Source: an uncultured Bacteroidales bacterium (GTDB lineage Bacteria > Bacteroidota > Bacteroidia > Bacteroidales > VadinHA17). Taken from it: 64,000 nt of DNA. Both the position numbers and the translations under genes were made by a program. A model generated the notes under the pieces. It ran no database searches, was not told the DNA's origin, and saw nothing but the letters and a program-made list of their open reading frames with translations. Shown here in pieces: positions 6,935 through 30,698 of the stretch. Location of the stretch: positions 23,892 to 87,891 of the forward strand of contig OW818650.1 in NCBI GenBank assembly GCA_942492865.1, read 5' to 3'. The number at the start of each line of letters is the position of its first letter. The first letter of the stretch is position 1.

Positions 6935-7127
6935 AAATATTATTTTTTGAATTATGCCTACTCTTTGGTTTTTCGGCCTCCACCAGTTGGTAATAAATAA
7001 GTTTTAGTGTTAATTACTTCACAGCAAAAATCAAACCAATCTTTTTTCTTAGGAATACCATAAAATCGACCTAAAGAACGTGCAGGAATAAGCTAGATAT
7101 AAGATATTTGTAATAGTTAACATCCCG

Positions 7128-12715: not shown

Positions 12716-12777
12716 TGAATGCTTTTTTATGTTTGAATTGTCCAGAATTTGTCTTTGGGGGCACTTACTATGCCACC

Positions 12778-13169
12778 TAACGGCCCGGCAATAAAATTAG
12801 TAAACGTTACCCGACGCCCGGAGGCCGGTGAGCACTGCACCCTACTATGAAGAAAATGTATCGAGGCCGGAGAAGGAGGGTACGGCGCGTGTTTTTGCAG
12901 TCCAGGCAGAGAATTTAATTGAGTATTACGAGTGTCGCGGTACAAAATGTGATGCGCGCCATATGTTGTCCCCGGTTACAGAGTGATCTAGGTGCATAGG
13001 TGCAGTGTCGCGGTACAAGGCTGATGCGCGCCGGTTGTTGTCCACGGTTACTGATGTTTCTACGGGCAGAGGCGGGAATCCGGGTTTATCACCACGCCAG
13101 TTGTTGTCCAACGAGCAGAGAATCAATGCAAAAACCGTGACGAGTTTATTAATTTTATTGTCCGTGTTA
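12778..13169 (+). repeat. Cassette-boundary element E9, type A (392 bp)
   Basis: Same termini and interior as E1. Used as the exemplar for the fold analysis. Confidence 0.9.
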
Positions 13170-13840: not shown

Positions 13841-15727
13841 ATCGAGTAGGTAAAGGGGAGTTTCACCCCTAAACCTCTCACGGAACCGTACGTGATACTC
13901 TCGCATCATACGGCTCTTGTTATACAAAAAAAGTCAAGCGGTTTCGAAGCCATGCTGCCAGTGTACAAATAAATCGGGTTGCCGTTTAGCAAGATCCCGA
14001 ATCCATCGACCAGCTTTCTTATGACTACCATTAAACCGTTTATACCGTTTAACCACCCACATGTTCAACCTGCGATGAAAGACACTGAATATCCACTGTA
14101 ACTCGTGTTTCCTGTATTTCCCAAAGTGATCAATCCAGCTCTTAATCTTCGGGTTGAAGAAAGCAGCTATGTGGTATATATCCCTGTTGGTCCAATTGTG
14201 AAAATTTGAGTCACGTATCTCGTCAATGATCCTCTTCTCGTTCTTCTTGCTAATCGCACAATCAAATCCTAAGAACATTCTGCCCTCTTCTTTATTCATT
14301 GCCGGTCTTGGCTGAAAGCTGAATCCCAGAAAATCAAACTGCACTGTATTATAGTCGGCATTGCGCCGTGCTTTCTTACAGTATACAATTTTCGTCTTCT
14401 TTTCATTCAGTTGCAGCTTGCATTCGACCATTCTCTCCCTTATGGCTTTTAGAACTTCCTCTGCTTCCTGCTGCGTATTACAGTGAACAATTATGTCATC
14501 TGCATAGCGTACAAATCGAAGCTTCGGGTATGTCTTTCCAAGCCATTTGTCAAAAGCATAATGAAGGAATAGGTTCGCAAGCAGAGGACTAATTACTCCT
14601 CCCTGCGGTGTGCCCTCTCCCATCCTGTATCTCTTGCCACCTTTTCTATCTTCTATCGCGGCTTCAAGCCACCTCACGAGATACATCTTTACCCATTTCT
14701 CCTCAACATGCCTTTCAACTGCCTTCATGAGCAGCTCGTGTGACATCTTGTCGAAGAAACTTGATATGTCCATGTCGACAACCCACTCGAACTCCCGCAC
14801 ATTTCTACGAACCTGTGCGATTGCCTGATGAGTACTTCTAAGTGGTCGATATCCGTAAGAGCTTTCCACAAATATAGCTTCAAAGCGGGCTTCAAGGTAA
14901 TCTTTGATGACCTGCTGCGCTATCCGGTCTCTTACTATGGGTATTCCAAGCTTACGCTTTCTCCCATCATCCTTAGGAATTTCTACTTCGAGAACTGAAG
15001 TTGGTCGGTAGCTGCCTGAACTCAGGCGGTTCCAGATCACATAGAGATTGTTAGATAATTTCTCTTCAAACTTCTCCAGAGTCTCCCCATCTATCCCGGC
15101 TGCTCCCTTGTTCTTCTTTACTCTCTTGTAGGCGGCGACTACCATTTCCTGGGTAATCGGTATGCTTTTCGTCTCCGTTGTCCTACTCCTACCCCGGTTA
15201 TCCAAGGGTGGTAGAGGCAATTTCAACTGTATAACCTCAGCCCTTCGCTCCGCTCCCATTACAGGAGTTTCATCACTACTACGACTGAGTCTGTCCTCAT
15301 ACAAGTCATCAGTATTCGGCCTCCCGGGTTGTCCTCCTGGTTGTGCCTTTCCTTTACCATCCTTGTATGAGTTCCCCTGTTCCATAACTAAGCCTGAATA
15401 GAAATCATGCCCCCTTTATGCCGTCTGCCATGCAGCCAGTAAGCAGGTGCCCGCTGCACTTTGGTCCCCCAGCAGCCATAAACCGGTGGTTTTGACAGAT
15501 TGTCGTTCTCTCGACACTTCATCGAAGGTTCATTTTCATTCATCTTTCCTATTCTTACCTGATCCTTTTGGCAGGACCTTTTCCCCTTACCGTTTAGTAC
15601 CTCGCCGTTGCCAGTTCAGCACCGAGGGGCGGTTTCCGGGTACGCCTGTACGTCCCCGTGAGAGGCCATACTCTCATCTTAATTACAGCATCAGATCCCG
15701 TTGGTACGAGGTCTGTTCAGGGCACAC
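13841..15727 (-). mobile_element. Group II intron, copy 1 (intact, 1887 bp)
   Basis: On the minus strand the 5' end reads GTGTGCCCTGAAC (GUGYG). A 34-nt domain V, GAGCCGTATGATGCGAGAGTATCACGTACGGTTC, is the reverse complement of 13883-13916 and shows the AGC triad, a 2-nt bulge and a GAGA tetraloop. A domain VI-like hairpin follows and the intron ends ...CTACTCGAT. Encodes an RT/maturase. Confidence 0.9.
13934..15385 (-). CDS. Group II intron reverse transcriptase/maturase (no endonuclease domain evident)
   Basis: 483 aa with RT motifs (AAGIDG, RKLGIPIVRDRIAQ, FVRYADDIIVHC) and a C-terminal maturase-like region. Confidence 0.9.
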   Translation of the reverse strand: MEQGNSYKDGKGKAQPGGQPGRPNTDDLYEDRLSRSSDETPVMGAERRAEVIQLKLPLPPLDNRGRSRTTETKSIPITQEMVVAAYKRVKKNKGAAGIDGETLEKFEEKLSNNLYVIWNRLSSGSYRPTSVLEVEIPKDDGRKRKLGIPIVRDRIAQQVIKDYLEARFEAIFVESSYGYRPLRSTHQAIAQVRRNVREFEWVVDMDISSFFDKMSHELLMKAVERHVEEKWVKMYLVRWLEAAIEDRKGGKRYRMGEGTPQGGVISPLLANLFLHYAFDKWLGKTYPKLRFVRYADDIIVHCNTQQEAEEVLKAIRERMVECKLQLNEKKTKIVYCKKARRNADYNTVQFDFLGFSFQPRPAMNKEEGRMFLGFDCAISKKNEKRIIDEIRDSNFHNWTNRDIYHIAAFFNPKIKSWIDHFGKYRKHELQWIFSVFHRRLNMWVVKRYKRFNGSHKKAGRWIRDLAKRQPDLFVHWQHGFETA

Positions 15728-17613
15728 ATCGAGTAGGTAAAGGGGAGTTTCACCCCTAAACCTCTCACGGAACCGTACGTGATACTCTCGCATCATACGG
15801 CTCTTGTTATACAAAAAAAGTCAAGCGGTTTCGAAGCCATGCTGCCAGTGTACAAATAAATCGGGTTGCCGTTTAGCAAGATCCCGAATCCATCGACCAG
15901 CTTTCTTATGACTACCATTAAACCGTTTATACCGTTTAACCACCCACATGTTCAACCTGCGATGAAAGACACTGAATATCCACTGTAACTCGTGTTTCCT
16001 GTATTTCCCAAAGTGATCAATCCAGCTCTTAATCTTCGGGTTGAAGAAAGCAGCTATGTGGTATATATCCCTGTTGGTCCAATTGTGAAAATTTGAGTCA
16101 CGTATCTCGTCAATGATCCTCTTCTCGTTCTTCTTGCTAATCGCACAATCAAATCCTAAGAACATTCTGCCCTCTTCTTTATTCATTGCCGGTCTTGGCT
16201 GAAAGCTGAATCCCAGAAAATCAAACTGCACTGTATTATAGTCGGCATTGCGCCGTGCTTTCTTACAGTATACAATTTTCGTCTTCTTTTCATTCAGTTG
16301 CAGCTTGCATTCGACCATTCTCTCCCTTATGGCTTTTAGAACTTCCTCTGCTTCCTGCTGCGTATTACAGTGAACAATTATGTCATCTGCATAGCGTACA
16401 AATCGAAGCTTCGGGTATGTCTTTCCAAGCCATTTGTCAAAAGCATAATGAAGGAATAGGTTCGCAAGCAGAGGACTAATTACTCCTCCTGCGGTGTGCC
16501 CTCTCCCATCCTGTATCTCTTGCCACCTTTTCTATCTTCTATCGCGGCTTCAAGCCACCTCACGAGATACATCTTTACCCATTTCTCCTCAACATGCCTT
16601 TCAACTGCCTTCATGAGCAGCTCGTGTGACATCTTGTCGAAGAAACTTGATATGTCCATGTCGACAACCCACTCGAACTCCCGCACATTTCTACGAACCT
16701 GTGCGATTGCCTGATGAGTACTTCTAAGTGGTCGATATCCGTAAGAGCTTTCCACAAATATAGCTTCAAAGCGGGCTTCAAGGTAATCTTTGATGACCTG
16801 CTGCGCTATCCGGTCTCTTACTATGGGTATTCCAAGCTTACGCTTTCTCCCATCATCCTTAGGAATTTCTACTTCGAGAACTGAAGTTGGTCGGTAGCTG
16901 CCTGAACTCAGGCGGTTCCAGATCACATAGAGATTGTTAGATAATTTCTCTTCAAACTTCTCCAGAGTCTCCCCATCTATCCCGGCTGCTCCCTTGTTCT
17001 TCTTTACTCTCTTGTAGGCGGCGACTACCATTTCCTGGGTAATCGGTATGCTTTTCGTCTCCGTTGTCCTACTCCTACCCCGGTTATCCAAGGGTGGTAG
17101 AGGCAATTTCAACTGTATAACCTCAGCCCTTCGCTCCGCTCCCATTACAGGAGTTTCATCACTACTACGACTGAGTCTGTCCTCATACAAGTCATCAGTA
17201 TTCGGCCTCCCGGGTTGTCCTCCTGGTTGTGCCTTTCCTTTACCATCCTTGTATGAGTTCCCCTGTTCCATAACTAAGCCTGAATAGAAATCATGCCCCC
17301 TTTATGCCGTCTGCCATGCAGCCAGTAAGCAGGTGCCCGCTGCACTTTGGTCCCCCAGCAGCCATAAACCGGTGGTTTTGACAGATTGTCGTTCTCTCGA
17401 CACTTCATCGAAGGTTCATTTTCATTCATCTTTCCTATTCTTACCTGATCCTTTTGGCAGGACCTTTTCCCCTTACCGTTTAGTACCTCGCCGTTGCCAG
17501 TTCAGCACCGAGGGGCGGTTTCCGGGTACGCCTGTACGTCCCCGTGAGAGGCCATACTCTCATCTTAATTACAGCATCAGATCCCGTTGGTACGAGGTCT
17601 GTTCAGGGCACAC
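15728..17613 (-). mobile_element. Group II intron, copy 2 (1886 bp, head-to-tail with copy 1)
   Basis: By eye identical to copy 1 except for one missing C in the run at about 16488-16490. Its 5' end lies 8 nt from the TAAC of E10. Confidence 0.85.
15821..17271 (-). pseudogene. Frameshifted group II intron RT/maturase
   Basis: A 1-nt deletion (ctccctgc becomes ctcctgc) splits the ORF into 16480-17271 and 15821-16318, which otherwise translate identically to copy 1. Confidence 0.85.
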
Positions 17614-17621
17614 ATGACACC

Positions 17622-18013
17622 TAACGGCCCGGCAATAAAATTAGTAAACGTTACCCGACGCCCGGAGGCCGGGGAGCACTACACACTACTATGAAGAGAA
17701 TGTATCGAGGCCGGAGAAGGAGGGTACGGCGCGTGTTTTTGCAGTCCAGGCAGAGAATTTAATTGAGTATTAAGAGTGTCGCGGTACAAGATGTGATGCG
17801 CGCCATATGTTGTCCCCGGTTACAGTGTAATCTAGGTGCACTGGTGCAGTGTCGCGGTACAAAGTTGATGCGCGCAGGTTGTTGTCCACGGTTACTGTGG
17901 TTTCTAAGGGCAGAGGCGGGAATCCGGGTTTATCACCAAGCCAGTTGTTGTCCAACGTGCAGAGAATCAATGCAAAAACCGTGACGAGTTTATTAATTTT
18001 ATTGTCCGTGTTA
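17622..18013 (+). repeat. Cassette-boundary element E10, type A (392 bp)
   Basis: Same termini and interior as E1. Confidence 0.9.
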
Positions 18014-24828: not shown

Positions 24829-26388
24829 TCATTCATGTACTCCAGTCTTTTCCAGGTGCAAATAATCAACTACCTGCTCTTTCACGTCAAGATCCTCAAT
24901 AGGACTTCTGATTGCCACCAGATTCCTGCGGCTGACGTGAGTATATATCTCTGTTGTGCGGGTGCTTTTGTGACCAAGTAGCTCCTGAATATATCTTATA
25001 TCAAGTCCATTCTCATGCAGATGCGTTGCGTAACTGTGCCTCAGGCTGTGAACGCCCACTTCCTTCTGTATGCCGGCATCTCTTAATGCTTTCTTGAAAA
25101 CATGATAAACGCTTTCAACGGAATACCGCTGACCCCTCTGGCCTTCAAAAAGATATTTTCCCGGACGATGGCTTTCAAGATACTCATCAACCTTCGGCCA
25201 GAGTTTACCTGGCACCGGAACAATCCGGTCAACTCCCCCCTTCCCTTCCCGAATGTGAAGAATATTACGCTCCCTGTCAAAATCGGTGAGCCTGATATTT
25301 GTAACCTCCGATCTCCTCAGCCCACAGGAATAAATAATCCAAAGGAGCAACTTGTGCTTGCTGTTACGCGCAGAGTTAAGTATTCTGGCTATCTCATCTT
25401 TGGAAAAGACCTTCGGCAATGCTCTGCTGCGCCTGGGCCTCTCAAGTATCCCGGGTATAATTCTCCCTTTTCCGGCGAGCTCATAATAAAGCTTGATCGC
25501 CGAAACCATCTGGTTTTGAAATGATGCGGAAAAGCCGTGCTTCAAAACAAAGTCATTAATGAAGTCCGACACTTCATTATGGGATATTTCATGCGGATCT
25601 TTTGTATGATAGTACTTAAAAAATAATTCAAGCTGGGAAATGTATGACTCAATTGTCCTGTTACTATACCTGTATTCTTCGAGATGCCTCCGTAAAAGTT
25701 CAACTCCTTCCCTTGCAGCTGTTTTAAGTTCCCTTGACCTTACTTCTTCACCTGAGGCCTTCCGGGCCTCTGCAACATCTGCTTTTGGTGCCTGCTTTAA
25801 TACAATGACCTTCACCCCCTGGCCAGAGAAGTAATCGGACAATGAATCAACGGTAATCTTCGACCACTTAAGAAGAAACTCCCTGTGAACCTTGTCATAA
25901 TAATACTTACCGTAACTTCTGATCTCATCAATCCATTTCTTATCATAGTAACCGGTGAACCTTACAGACAACCGCTCATCTTCAATGCGGAATTCAACCG
26001 GTGAATATCCTGATGTGAATGACCTTTCATGGAAATCTTTTTTTCCTTCAACTAAGTCATCATCACGGATTTTCTCTTTAACTATTTTTATTTCAGTTCT
26101 GGGGATGAGCGCTTCTTCCTCATGATGATCAGGAACATGATCAGGTATTTTGAGCCCGCCATAGTAGGCTGTATTCGATAGATCGATATCTGCTACCTCC
26201 CTGAAAGCCATCAGAACCTTCCTGAGGTTTTCTTTGTTATCCTCAATATGCCAGCATTTTAGCGAACCGCTGTAATTAACTCCATTAAGTTGTTTTGTAA
26301 TTGAAATAAGTTCCCTGTCATACACGAATTCAAGAGACAATCTTCGCCTTTCATCATGTATGATGTGCCTTACAGTGATCTTTTTCAT
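24829..26388 (-). CDS. Tyrosine recombinase/integrase with a long N-terminal extension
   Basis: C-terminal catalytic motifs: GLRRSE (R), HSLRHSYATH (HxxR), LLGHKS, IYTHV (Y). Preceded by about 250 aa, including two similar modules (RRRLSLEFVYD... and ERLSVRFTGYYD...). Start taken at MKKITVRH (26388). The ORF track extends to 26496. Confidence 0.85.
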   Translation of the reverse strand: MKKITVRHIIHDERRRLSLEFVYDRELISITKQLNGVNYSGSLKCWHIEDNKENLRKVLMAFREVADIDLSNTAYYGGLKIPDHVPDHHEEEALIPRTEIKIVKEKIRDDDLVEGKKDFHERSFTSGYSPVEFRIEDERLSVRFTGYYDKKWIDEIRSYGKYYYDKVHREFLLKWSKITVDSLSDYFSGQGVKVIVLKQAPKADVAEARKASGEEVRSRELKTAAREGVELLRRHLEEYRYSNRTIESYISQLELFFKYYHTKDPHEISHNEVSDFINDFVLKHGFSASFQNQMVSAIKLYYELAGKGRIIPGILERPRRSRALPKVFSKDEIARILNSARNSKHKLLLWIIYSCGLRRSEVTNIRLTDFDRERNILHIREGKGGVDRIVPVPGKLWPKVDEYLESHRPGKYLFEGQRGQRYSVESVYHVFKKALRDAGIQKEVGVHSLRHSYATHLHENGLDIRYIQELLGHKSTRTTEIYTHVSRRNLVAIRSPIEDLDVKEQVVDYLHLEKTGVHE

Positions 26389-26652
26389 AAGCAGCGAGAG
26401 TAAGAATTTAGCACTTTGAACTACTCCAATACATGAGATAAACACGGATTGAAAAAGCAGTCTGCATAGCAAGTTACAAAGAATTAGAAAAACCACAAAA
26501 AGTTTTCAATTGCTGTCACTCATTTAACTAAATCATTTCAATAAGTTGTCCAACATATCCAAAAAGTACTATAGATATATCAATTTGCATTATCGGAATT
26601 GTTGACTATTTTTGTGAAAGTTTTGCCGTCTTGCTGAAAGAGGTAAAAAATC

Positions 26653-26726
26653 CGGGGTGTGGCGCAGTTGGCTAGCGCACTTGCATGGGGTGCAAGGGGT
26701 CGTCCGTTCAAGTCGGATCACCCCGA
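26653..26726 (+). tRNA. tRNA-Pro (anticodon GGG)
   Basis: Hand-folded cloverleaf. Acceptor CGGGGTG/CACCCCG with C1:G72, D stem GCGC/GCGC, anticodon stem CTTGC/GCAAG, loop ATGGGGT (U33, GGG, G37), T arm GTCCG-TTCAAGT-CGGAT, discriminator A. Confidence 0.85.
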
Positions 26727-26740
26727 CAAAAGGTATAATG

Positions 26741-27217: not shown

Positions 27218-30200
27218 TTATCTGAAAACTACCAAGTTTTTTGAAATTATGCCCTTTGCGGTCGAGATTTTCATTAAATAGTTTCCTGTTGAAAGTTGCG
27301 AGAGATCGATTCTAACCTTTTGTGACTTTATCGTTTTTTCTAATAAAACTGAACCTAACAAATTTAAAACTTGGACATGGTTTAAAATTAAGTCAGACTC
27401 AAGTACAACCTCATGATTTGCCGGATTTGGATAAACTTTAATATTTAATGATTCAGTTTCTGCAATGGACGATATGTTTTTCTTTGCGAGAACATTCATG
27501 GTTATCCCATACCAAGAACCAAGATACAAGCCGCCAATTTGATCATGAATTGAAAACCCAGAATATGGAATTCCATCTGAAGAATAATGCACATAATAAT
27601 GTCTGTTAACGTTATAAAAATTTGCTCCGTTCTTGGTAAGCAAAAAAGTTTGATCTTCCGATAATCCAATACAGGAAATCCAATCATTAATGTTTGATAT
27701 TGCTTTTAAATCAGCCCAGTCTGCAATAGAATAATTTTCGCCGAATTCTGATTGAATTCGTGTATTAAGATTTTCCGTTTCAGCATATTGTCCTTTTGTT
27801 AATAAAAAATTATTACATAAAGGATTTGATCCCTGAGTAAAATTTGCTACGAGGTTCCTGTTTGATGTTAGAGTGAAGGTATATGTTGCATTAGAAGATA
27901 CCACTGATCCGCTTTCCGTCCAGTTAGAAAATGAATAGCCACTGGTTGGAGTTGCTGTTACTGATCGGGAGGTTCCACTCTGGAATGTCCCAGATCCGTT
28001 AGTAGTACCGCCACCTGAGGGATTAGAAGAAGTAGTGATAGTATAGTTTACAGGATTCTGTGTGAAATTTGCTACGAGGTTCCTGTTTGATGTTAGAGTG
28101 AAGGTATATGTTGCATTAGAAGATACCACTGATCCGCTTTCCGTCCAGTTAGAAAATGAATAGCCGCTGGTTGGAGTTGCTGTTACTGATCGGGAGGTTC
28201 CACTCTGGAATGTCCCAGATCCGTTAGTAGTACCGCCACCTGAGGGATTAGAAGAAGTAGTGATAGTATAGTTTACAGGATTCTGTGTGAAATTTGCTAC
28301 GAGGTTCCTGTTTGATGTTAGAGTGAAGGTATATGTTGCATTAGAAGATACCACTGATCCGCTTTCCGTCCAGTTAGAAAATGAATAGCCACTGGTTGGA
28401 GTTGCTGTTACTGATCGGGAGGTTCCACTCTGGAATGTCCCAGATCCGTTAGTAGTACCGCCACCTGAGGGATTAGAAGAAGTAGTGATAGTATAGTTTA
28501 CAGGATTCTGTGTGAAATTTGCTACGAGGTTCCTGTTTGATGTTAGAGTGAAGGTATATGTTGCATTAGAAGATACCACTGATCCGCTTTCCGTCCAGTT
28601 AGAAAATGAATAGCCACTGGTTGGAGTTGCTGTTACTGATCGGGAGGTTCCACTCTGGAATGTCCCAGATCCGTTAGTAGTACCGCCACCTGAGGGATTA
28701 GAAGAAGTAGTGATAGTATAGTTTACAGGATTCTGTGTGAAATTTGCTACGAGGTTCCTGTTTGATGTTAGAGTGAAGGTATATGTTGCATTAGAAGATA
28801 CCACTGATCCGCTTTCCGTCCAGTTAGAAAATGAATAGCCGCTGGTTGGAGTTGCTGTTACTGATCGGGAGGTTCCACTCTGGAATGTCCCAGATCCGTT
28901 AGTAGTACCGCCACCTGAGGGATTAGAAGAAGTAGTGATAGTATAGTTTACAGGATTCTGTGTGAAATTTGCTACGAGGTTACTGTTTGATGTTAGAGTG
29001 AAGGTATATGTTGCATTAGAAGATACCACTGATCCGCTTTCCGTCCAGTTAGAAAATGAATAGCCACTGGTTGGAGTTGCTGTTACTGATCGGGAGGTTC
29101 CACATAGATATGTCCCAGATCCTCCAGTAGTGCCTCCTCCTGTAGGATTTGAGGATAAATTAATTGAATAGTATATCGGTGAGAAGTGAGCGAAAAGATT
29201 TGTATTTTCATAAACATAAAAAGAATATGTAGCATTTGTTGATACAACCGAACCGTTATCATTAGTCCAATAGTTGAATGAATAACAATTTTTTGGCGTA
29301 GCGGTAACAATTACCTTATCTCCGTAAAAATAAGTCCCATTTCCAGATGTTGTGCCGCCATTGGAGGGAACCGAGGATGTTGAAACCAGATTTGTTTCCC
29401 TTATAAAAATCCCTCTTTCTCTCTGAGTTGTCATATTCCCAACATTATCATAAGCACGAACTCTAAAAAAATATGTATGACCTCTTACTCCTGTAAATGA
29501 ATAATTAAATTCAGGTCCAATATTTGGGAATGGTGATAATTGTTGCCATGCAGCAGCATTTGTAGTTACAAATCCGACATTATCTGCATATTCTAATTCA
29601 ACCTTCCAAATGCCACTCTCGTTACCAGTATTATTTAGATTATCTATTGGGTATGTGTAAACAATAAATGATGTTTCATCACTAAGGTCTCCCATAGGAA
29701 TTTCATTATTGTTGCTATCATAAATACCAATGTAGGCCCCCCCGCTGAAAATGGCAAAAACAGGAGCATCAGCATCGGTAATTTGTTGAATGAATTTTGT
29801 TTCAACAAGGTCATCAAACAATAAATCATTTTCCTTCAGTTCGAGATGCAAATATTTAGATGGCTTATCTGAATATGTTGGATTCAAGACCTGCATGTTA
29901 AATGTGAAATATGACATACTTCCAAGTGAAATTATATTCGATTTGTTATTGCTTGAAGTAGAAAAAAATGAATTCCATGGTAATGTTGGCTCATCTGCAA
30001 TATTAAGATAATATTTCCCAGATTCATTGGCTCTTATTTTTAAACCAACTATTGCACCATTAGTTGGAAGATTGTTACGAGAAGGTAGGTAGATAGGACC
30101 TGTAAGAGAATTTGGGACATAAACTCTATATTGGTCAATGCCAATGTTGCTACCACTTATTTCAGTAATATATGCTTGAGAGGAAGCTTGGGTTACGGTT

Positions 30201-30313: not shown

Positions 30314-30659
30314 ATTTATGATTTTTGATCAGTATAGTTTATACAAAAATGGATTTCAATAGGGGAAATGTCGATTTCAGTAAGAATTTATTAAGATATC
30401 TTCTAAAGAGTTATATTTTTATTCTAACTATAATTTGATTATCAGATCTTTATAAATATATAAAATTTACGATTTTCGATATTATTAACAATAATTGAAA
30501 GGTTACGCTTTACTTTAAGTGTGATAAAAGTTACAATAAAATGATCAACGGTTGTTACACAAATTAGATTATTTTGACAAATCCCTGACTTTTTTGGATG
30601 AAATGCATATTTTAAATTGTTAAGTCTTGATGAAGTTATCTGGTCACTTGCTGCTGGTT

Positions 30660-30698
30660 CAAGGGGTCGTCCGTTCAAGTCGGATCACCCCGACAAAA
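30660..30698 (+). other. 39-bp direct repeat of the tRNA-Pro 3' half (att-like; decayed tRNA remnant)
   Basis: CAAGGGGTCGTCCGTTCAAGTCGGATCACCCCGACAAAA is identical to 26693-26731. Upstream, cacttgc also matches, but there is no acceptor 5' strand. A hairpin plus T-run follows. Confidence 0.8.

Follow-up and report, generated by a model that had tools for sequence, protein, structure and literature searches.

We analyzed a 64,000-nucleotide stretch of DNA from an uncultured Bacteroidales bacterium, referred to here as the window, in which two group II introns lie head to tail beside a giant attC-like element (E10) in a gene-cassette array. The window spans genome C1:23892-87891; coordinates are window positions unless marked 'genome', and the features of the locus are listed in Table 1. 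Both introns, like the cassette open reading frames (ORFs), are carried by the minus strand and abut exactly with lengths of 1886 and 1887 nt, the head-to-tail junction reading ...CTACTCGAT/GTGTGCCC (here and below a slash between sequences marks the boundary). The only difference between the copies is one G absent from a GGG run at intron nucleotides 1125-1127 (window ~16487-16489), which splits one reverse transcriptase (RT) frame into ORFs of 263 and 165 aa. The broken copy has the higher plus-strand coordinates and is therefore the upstream one on the minus strand. It follows the 5' exon GCCGGGCCGTTAGGTGTCAT, begins GTGTG, and starts 8 nt past the GTTA of E10 (17622-17625). Removal of both introns restores the match with the right flank of element E9 (GTTAGGTGTCATG versus GTTAGGTGTTCGTG), and the exon ligation product predicted by splicing is GTTAGGTGTCAT/GCGATAATC. 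An earlier reading of the letters alone (the original prediction) had described the exact abutment, the 1-nt deletion, the orientation, the spacing from GTTA, and the restored flank. All of these are borne out, the abutment by both coordinates and junction sequence, and the deletion as a change of GGG to GG; the end coordinate of 17625 that the original prediction gave for the pair includes 12 exon bases.

The hallmarks of a mobile group II intron are all present, namely domains V-VI, a domain I core, appropriate ends, and an RT/maturase ORF in domain IV. Each copy matches the Rfam models for domains V-VI (RF00029, 62 bits; gathering threshold 40) and domain I (group-II-D1D4-2, RF01999, 61.9 bits; gathering threshold 36), and the termini, GUGUG...GAU, conform to the consensus GUGYG...AY. 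Domain V has the canonical 34 nt that had been predicted, and a bulged A lies at 13847 in the downstream copy. The RT/maturase of the intact copy scores 395.6 bits with TIGR04416 (cut-off 300) and contains RVT_1 and GIIM domains. A domain search of the protein found no HNH/endonuclease (En) domain, in agreement with the original prediction.

We consider it likely that the locus holds two copies of an active, En-less group II intron of bacterial ORF class D (the RmInt1/RmInt2 lineage, with a IIB-type ribozyme), which homes by pairing of its exon-binding sites (EBS) with intron-binding sites (IBS) in the exons and which formed the tandem by re-homing. The insertion beside the cassette boundary is specific and not accidental; tandems as such are a known outcome.

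Table 1. Features of the tandem intron locus, in window coordinates.
Feature	Position	Strand	Details
Upstream intron copy	15728..17613	-	1886 nt; RT frame broken by 1-nt deletion; Rfam domain I and domains V-VI
Downstream intron copy	13841..15727	-	1887 nt; intact; identical to five other genome copies
Conserved RT/maturase, class D type, without En	13934..15205	-	Start near codon 61, TTG at 15203-15205
Longest ORF containing the RT	15385..13934	-	ATG at 15385; upstream part spans domains II-III
5' exon homing half-site GCCGGGCCGTTAGGTGTCAT	17614..17633	-	IBS1 GTCAT at 17614-17618; IBS2 CGTT at 17623-17626
EBS1 AUGGC, intron nt 249-253	17361..17365 (upstream copy); 15475-15479 (downstream copy)	-	RmInt2 homology and covariation
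EBS2 AACG, intron nt 221-224	17390..17393 (upstream copy); 15504-15507 (downstream copy)	-	RmInt2 homology and covariation
EBS3 A, intron nt 311	17303 (upstream copy); 15417 (downstream copy)	-	Column pairs in 8/8 relatives
Domains V-VI	13841..13918 (downstream copy); 15728-15805 (upstream copy)	-	RF00029, 62 bits
Domain I core motif (group-II-D1D4-2)	15557..15675 (downstream copy); 17443-17561 (upstream copy)	-	Rfam
G-run lacking one G in upstream copy (GGG to GG)	16487..16489	-	Frameshift
First 3'-exon base, G	13840	-	Same as the intron's first nucleotide
Giant attC-like element E10	17622..18013	.	392 nt; minus-strand end GCCGGGCCGTTA supplies IBS2 and the distal 5' exon

Intron class and ribozyme

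Among plasmids searched with tblastn, the RT matches an intron of S. meliloti GR4 with 45% identity (395 bits) and one of Sinorhizobium medicae WSM419 with 43% identity (373 bits). The GR4 locus carries both the published RmInt2 target AGTGC at -14 to -10 and the published EBS2 GAACU and is taken here as RmInt2, which like RmInt1 and Sr.md.I1 is a class D intron (PMC4615759). The match to the RT of GsI-IIC reaches only 171 bits, compared with 395 bits for RmInt2. The C-terminus of the RT, IRDLAKRQPDLFVHW, matches the published class D signature LX3AX3PXLF[V/A]HW, 7 residues from the end, and LF[V/A]HW is common to RmInt2, Sr.md.I1, and other near relatives. In a maximum-likelihood tree (IQ-TREE) sampled without classes E, F, and the g1-g4 varieties, the RT, its metagenomic relatives, and the class D references RmInt2 and Sr.md.I1 form one clade (support 99/99), and the IIC RTs of GsI-IIC and E. 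rectale form a separate one (100/98). Lack of D and En domains, the C-terminal motif, clustering with class D references, and recognition through EBS1, EBS2, and EBS3 by a IIB-type ribozyme together place the intron in class D.

The RNA agrees with the protein. The domain I model also matches RmInt2 and Sr.md.I1 (107-115 bits), at an equal offset from the 5' end and from the conserved RT start, and the first 640 nt of the intron align colinearly with RmInt2, domains II-III included, giving a colinear 5' ribozyme of ~580 nt. The original prediction had counted only about 435 nt of non-coding ribozyme. That arithmetic is right for the longest ORF (15385..13934) but misleading, because the first ~60 codons of this ORF overlie domains II-III and the figure is an artefact of upstream extension of the frame. 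The third-position share of changes over codons 1-60 is 0.30-0.44 in four of five comparisons, versus 0.47-0.73 in the RT; the fifth, with the closest relative, gives 0.83 from just six changes. Distant relatives have open frames of only ~423 aa. The ribozyme is ~580 + 93 nt in size and IIB-like.

On the strength of the small ribozyme, the canonical domain V, and the RT without an En domain, the original prediction had proposed class C. An intron of that class akin to the IIC-attC group would read the closing stem-loop of the element together with 3-4 bp of IBS1, and a second copy would land by the domain V/VI hairpins of the first. The missing En domain and the GUGUG start fit such an intron, and the best matches among solved structures are indeed IIC RTs. 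A class C assignment based on that structure ranking was dropped after the plasmid matches, the Rfam comparison, and the RmInt2 alignment; to our knowledge no class D structure exists to compete, and the ranking thus favors IIC RTs. Against class C stand the class D motif, the tree, the 395 versus 171 bits, the Rfam model shared with class D introns, and the 580-nt colinear 5' ribozyme with its EBS2. The intron-encoded protein falls outside the class C clade by tree and by bit score, and the class C trait of a small ribozyme without EBS2 fails too, since an EBS2 sits at the position of that of RmInt2 and covaries with the exon. The intron is thus classified outside class C, an outcome that the original prediction had itself named as decisive against its account.

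Target recognition

To locate the EBS sites we relied on homology to RmInt2 together with covariation among related introns. The loop with EBS1 has its homologue in the EBS1 loop of RmInt2, and in five lineages it changes in step with the 5' exon (AUGGC with GCCAT, AUCAAC with GTTGAT, CUUGA with TTAAG, CAUGA with TCATG, and UCACUG with CAGTGG). A hairpin loop at intron nt 57-62 (UAUGGC) was rejected as EBS1; the same loop occurs in a relative with a different target. EBS2 (AACG) pairs with CGTT at -13 to -10, inside the conserved GCCGTTA end of the element, and lines up with GAACU, the EBS2 that experiments defined in RmInt2 (PMC4615759). Covariation of EBS2 extends to three lineages: AACG with CGTT here, UGUCC with GGACA in a relative with a different target, and CCG with CGG in another relative (loci L044 and L009). 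The EBS3 column forms a Watson-Crick pair with the first 3'-exon base in 8/8 related introns that have a single known site, including U-A in RmInt2 and G-C in Sr.md.I1, in agreement with the published pairs. EBS3 is A in the present intron, and the +1 bases at its four independent sites in the cassette array are T (twice), A (once), and G (the window site).

As judged from these covarying pairs, the intron reads sequence and not a hairpin, and the EBS1, EBS2, and EBS3 pairings account for its site; homing next to a stem-loop, as originally proposed, is not borne out. Covariation and homology point to a DNA target that would be recognized mainly through RNA-DNA base pairing. EBS2 would pair with the CGTT of the invariant GCCG/TTA end of the giant attC-like repeat, and EBS1 with the G(C/U)CAU that closes the cassette-specific 8-mer. 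Together these pairings would fix insertion 8 nt past GTTA, in the same sense as the cassette genes. The intron would then home to a site made up of two parts, the end of the recombination site of one cassette and the first 11 bases of the cassette after it.

Class C introns use a stem-loop in place of IBS2 (PMC7923331). The IIC-attC introns S.ma.I2, E.c.I7, and Kl.pn.I1 belong to this class, have a small ribozyme and no EBS2, and recognize the folded bottom strand of attC, inserting at TTGT/T in R'' (PMC3001079, PMC7923331). The window insertion does lie just 3' of a long hairpin-forming repeat, and two relatives are also 3' of short hairpins. Here, however, IBS2 (CGTT) overlaps the GTTA that would be paired in the folded element, so the helix must be open for EBS2 to pair. 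When E10 is folded, either strand gives a long closing helix with unremarkable z-scores (-0.9) and no strand discrimination. None of the IIC-attC traits applies: insertion is after G(C/T)CAT, before any base, not at TTGT/T in the bottom strand and antisense to the cassettes. Duplicated cassettes share, in three of five pairs, their content and the downstream element up to its GTTA; on the basis of this usual unit, the intron occupies the ORF-sense 'top' strand. Of the parallel with IIC-attC introns drawn in the original prediction, the specific position survives (8 nt past GTTA at 4/4 element sites) and the IIC-attC traits do not. IIC-attC reference introns were sought among the plasmid matches, and none was found in an integron context. 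Domain VI, moreover, ends 2 nt and not 8-12 nt before the tandem junction, and the junction matches neither EBS1 nor EBS2. A class C intron guided by hairpins appears very improbable.

Copies in the genome

The window is part of a single 4.57-Mb contig that holds the intron in seven identical copies, together with a 72%-identical relative and fragments. Six of the copies are in a long cassette array that runs across the contig ends and comprises ~52 elements ending CCGGGCCGTTA, all on the minus strand. These six represent four independent sites, each exactly 8 nt past GTTA, with the flanks TAAGCCAT (twice), GCTGCCAT, and GGTGTCAT, all of which end in G[CT]CAT. This motif is found in register at just 6 of the ~52 array elements, and four of the six are occupied. 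Tandem pairs are present at two of the four independent sites, the second (genome 1-3746) being interrupted by the contig start. The contig opens inside the downstream member of this second pair, which lacks its last 28 nt and carries a single mismatch close to its end. Because the contig's other end holds no intron sequence, the assembly is open at this point and may hide more copies.

The seventh copy lies on the opposite strand at genome 1425285 (1.425 Mb), in an ordinary intergenic region with no giant element, and follows the look-alike GCCGTAAGTTGCCAT. The original prediction had regarded copies at sites unrelated to the elements as evidence against a link to them. One such copy therefore exists, at a sequence resembling the target, and the other six are at element ends.

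All seven copies are co-oriented relative to the minimum of the cumulative GC skew at ~1.1 Mb; this is a weak skew, whose maximum lies close to dnaA at 3.88 Mb. With an origin at ~1.1 Mb, an uncertain assignment, all seven, the opposite-strand copy at 1.425 Mb included, would be on the lagging-strand template, matching the published bias of class D introns, and priming would occur at that template.

Three further observations concern this genome. A small second array of five elements with CCGGGCCGTTA ends lies at the GC-skew minimum (genome C1:1105841-1115442, plus strand) and contains no introns. An ORF-less mini-intron in the main array (genome C1:4532930-4533578) follows GTTATGGTTAAT, and its G1 is replaced by T. 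A copy that stands alone has the 3' exon AGTGCCATGAATAGAATGAC (genome C1:4555960-4555987), which matches 12/16 bases of an intron 5' end and may be the stump of an older intron or the cassette-start motif.

Relatives in other genomes and metagenomes

A 69%-identical intron, found on many metagenome contigs, is located 8-10 nt past GCCGTTA ends of such elements. Its neighbors there are small cassette-like genes that point the same way. On two more contigs, ORF-less mini-introns sit at GTTA element ends. An 83%-identical relative and a more distant one are at unrelated sites, which fit the EBS1 and EBS2 that each of them carries. The association with giant elements therefore belongs to a clade, and new cassettes are reached via changes in EBS1.

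Of the full intron, the ~650-nt mini-introns retain 490 nt at the 5' end and 80 nt at the 3' end, and on two metagenome contigs (L042:2586-3338 and L047:1-1291) they form tandems at GTTA element ends. Copies of the 69%-related intron (L014, L015, L016, L021) have the same EBS sites and, between them, three 5' flanks. With two of the flanks, GGTGGCATAG and GGTTTCATAG, the intron lies 10 nt past GTTA, and these flanks fit EBS1 only with a 2-nt bulge. The upstream and downstream neighbors at these four loci are combined in different ways; shuffling of cassettes could explain this, as could a chimeric assembly over the repeat. Flanks of the P0023 type (n=3) are 8 or 10 nt past GTTA, the 10-nt ones fitting EBS1 poorly.

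A search of genomes of the same order found relatives in 11 of 400, nearly all at contig ends, and was uninformative on tandems. A search for junctions of an intron 3' end with an intron 5' end found related head-to-tail introns in seven metagenome contigs and one metagenome-assembled genome. Among them are one relative of 90% identity, two cases beside GTTA element ends, and homo- as well as hetero-tandems of mini-introns. One locus in a metagenome-assembled genome (L040) was rejected as a clean tandem, the intron 3' end there being followed by only ~14 intron-like bases.

Formation of the tandem

The true 5' exon is intact at the occupied site, and the first 3'-exon base is G, as is the first base of the intron; the target from -25 to +1 is therefore unaltered by a first insertion. 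Because recognition is nearly all in the 5' exon, the 3' exon varies, and +1 is G, the occupied site is as good a target as the empty one. The second copy most likely re-homed into this intact 5' exon. A second ribonucleoprotein would have reverse-spliced at the boundary of the 5' exon with the resident copy's G1, leaving an exact head-to-tail pair. The upstream copy is then probably the later arrival; the frameshifted intron would be the younger of the two and would depend on RT supplied in trans.

There is experimental precedent for such products. Mobility assays with RmInt2 yielded a head-to-tail homing product with the order exon, intron, intron (PMC4615759). Tandem integration was also obtained in mobility assays with EcKTE56.groEL, a subgroup IIB1 intron of E. 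coli, the second copy entering precisely where the 5' exon meets the resident's first nucleotide in 4-22% of integrants (PMC12584367).

The original prediction had suggested homing next to the 3' hairpins of the first copy. This is not borne out: the exon that such an insertion would use, CUCGAU, makes only 2 contiguous pairs with EBS1 and none with EBS2, and the poor pairing, together with domain VI ending 2 nt from the junction, makes homing behind the first copy unlikely. Of the two places at which EBS/IBS pairing had been proposed as a check, the 5' exon thus fits both EBS1 and EBS2, and the intron 3' end fits neither. A real tandem could also have arisen if the RT switched from one intron RNA template to another, or if a circular intron RNA was copied. 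Ready template switching is a property of group II RTs, and circles of intron RNA that contain head-to-tail junctions are on record. In the L047 hetero-tandem, the fit of the downstream mini-intron's EBS1 (AUUAA) to the 3' end of the upstream intron (CGAU, 3 bp) is about equal to its fit to the mini-intron's own attC-like site, and the sequences there suggest that insertion behind a resident copy may also occur in the family. In the window, however, the junction contains no extra bases, and the junctions at L044 and L045 also mismatch EBS1, with the upstream exon of L044 matching by 6 bp. Re-homing into an occupied site has in addition been shown directly for a class D intron, RmInt2 (PMC4615759). 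We give all three of these other routes, insertion after the 3' end included, little credence. Our literature search on tandem class C introns and terminator-linked tandems returned nothing useful.

Several observations weigh against the account developed here. Both precedents ascribe their tandems to an EBS3(U)-G wobble (PMC4615759, PMC12584367), and EBS3 in the present intron is A, which cannot pair with G and leaves no such route; the intron tolerates an EBS3 mismatch, because two of its four independent sites also lack the pair. In the relatives at L009 and L044 the target also follows a hairpin, and DNA secondary structure may have a helper role. The sites at genome 28903 and 4551756 have a suitable IBS1 and IBS2 yet are empty. 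The position of dnaA near the skew maximum makes the placement of the origin uncertain, and the sampling of the RT tree limits the class assignment. Lastly, the two-copy state in this genome is known from the assembly alone, and the single base that distinguishes the copies lies in a homopolymer, where an indel is a typical consensus error of long reads.

The last of these points raises the possibility that the tandem is an assembly artefact, in which one real copy of a 1.9-kb repeat was duplicated by the assembler. The intron is a seven-copy exact repeat, the homopolymer indel is the sole difference between the copies, and the contig start within an intron of the other tandem pair indicates that these repeats trouble the assembler. 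A 3.8-kb tandem is, however, easily spanned by long reads, and the assembly placed 4.57 Mb in one contig. Exact related junctions recur in eight independent assemblies, including short-read contigs whose k-mers must derive from reads, and the arrangement is the one expected from the target rules and obtained experimentally with RmInt2 and EcKTE56.groEL. An artefact is accordingly unlikely, and we hold the tandem to be very probably real in this genome.

Array context and neighboring features

Duplicated cassettes in the array, with 93-99.9% identity, form the genome pairs 5233/23009, 27012/4537862, 4529967/4548264, 4527266/4542751, and 15341/4561640. Three of the pairs share the sequence from GTTA through the downstream element to its GTTA, one stops at the start of the downstream element, and one has mosaic downstream elements. 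Such duplicates help to fix where crossover takes place in the giant sites. A recurrent (C)TGCC motif occurs ~10-20 nt past the post-GTTA 8-mer in many cassettes, for example at window ~12750-12778 (minus strand), and at most cassette starts genome-wide. Examples are atgctgcccc, attctgcccg, gtcctgcc, and agctgcctg, and the intron 5' end, GTGTGCCCTG, is similar. An Rfam match to the DUF805b RNA is also present in the array (window 6955-6986, minus strand, 37 bits; gathering threshold 35.6).

Elsewhere in the window, the last 54 nt of a tRNA-Pro(GGG) are repeated 4 kb downstream (26653-26727 and 30645-30698) in an att-like arrangement that brackets the gene for a 1031-aa Flg_new_2/Por_Secre_tail protein. 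Within this surface protein gene are six 225-nt tandem repeats of 99% identity (27833-29257). Directly on the other side of the tRNA is a 555-aa tyrosine recombinase (24829-26496, minus strand), which scores 200 bits on the integron-integrase model, below the cut-off of 265, and is a candidate array integrase only.

Comparison with known systems and implications

The intron resembles RmInt2, RmInt1, and Sr.md.I1 (PMC4615759) in its En-less protein of ~420 conserved residues with the LF[V/A]HW C-terminus, and in its IIB-type ribozyme, which matches the same Rfam domain I model and carries EBS1, EBS2, and EBS3 at homologous positions. The lagging-strand template bias would be a further likeness, here deduced from GC skew. 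Like RmInt2, it targets a much-repeated sequence of another mobile element (the ends of insertion sequences in the case of RmInt2) and forms head-to-tail double insertions, those of RmInt2 having been seen in mobility assays. It differs from the three in that its protein is only 43-45% identical and its host is a member of the Bacteroidales, not the Alphaproteobacteria. Unlike RmInt2, it goes not to an insertion sequence but to the place where a giant attC-like repeat meets the next cassette, its EBS3 is A, with a tandem formed without the U-G wobble, and its annotated ORF extends upstream over domains II-III. EcKTE56.groEL resembles it in the point at which a second copy integrates, and differs in being a IIB1 intron that homes to the groEL stop codon and whose tandems are explained by an EBS3(U)-G wobble.

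With IIC-attC introns the present intron shares life in cassette arrays, insertion at a fixed point of a recombination-site repeat, and the occasional use of look-alike sites. It differs in belonging to class D, in recognizing sequence, in lying 8 nt outside GTTA, and in its sense orientation, IIC-attC introns being antisense to the cassettes. Two other exceptions have been described next to attC: UHB.I2, a IIB1 (CL1) intron just downstream of an attC in a cassette array from a soda lake, and an unusual top-strand IIC intron in Enterobacter cloacae (PMC7923331). Both resemble the present case as non-IIC-attC introns beside attC in cassette orientation. They are, however, single occurrences of other classes, with no conserved target or repeated homing shown, whereas here several sub-lineages that differ in EBS1 occupy many sites.

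Integron-associated group II introns have so far been known almost only as the class C-attC lineage, which uses the folded bottom strand and lies antisense to the cassettes. In the literature searched we found no description of a class D lineage specialized on attC-like cassette junctions in sense orientation. We tentatively raise the possibility, which we regard as doubtful at present, that Bacteroidales and related uncultured bacteria harbor a clade of class D introns that is a specialist parasite of a giant-attC cassette system and represents a second, independent origin of array specialization in group II introns. If so, this specialization would have been achieved by base pairing rather than by structure recognition, with the invariant end of the recombination site serving as IBS2 and changes in EBS1 allowing cassettes with other first bases to be colonized. 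The homing site would be re-formed at each cassette excision or insertion, and the intron would travel with the cassettes. Sense orientation would permit splicing out of array transcripts, presumably those of the cassettes themselves, and identical copies could drive cassette rearrangement and even array assembly, as proposed for IIC-attC introns.

The variation of EBS1 between sub-lineages, with EBS2 held on the conserved repeat end, offers a natural example of retargeting by a homing intron. The case also lends independent support to the view that the GCCG/TTA ends of the giant elements are functional, conserved boundaries. For those who assemble such arrays, exact 1.9-kb repeats and tandems are a practical matter, since they break assemblies, and this contig ends in one. 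The tandem in the window would be a natural counterpart of the tandem integrations obtained in the laboratory, formed here without the EBS3-G wobble.

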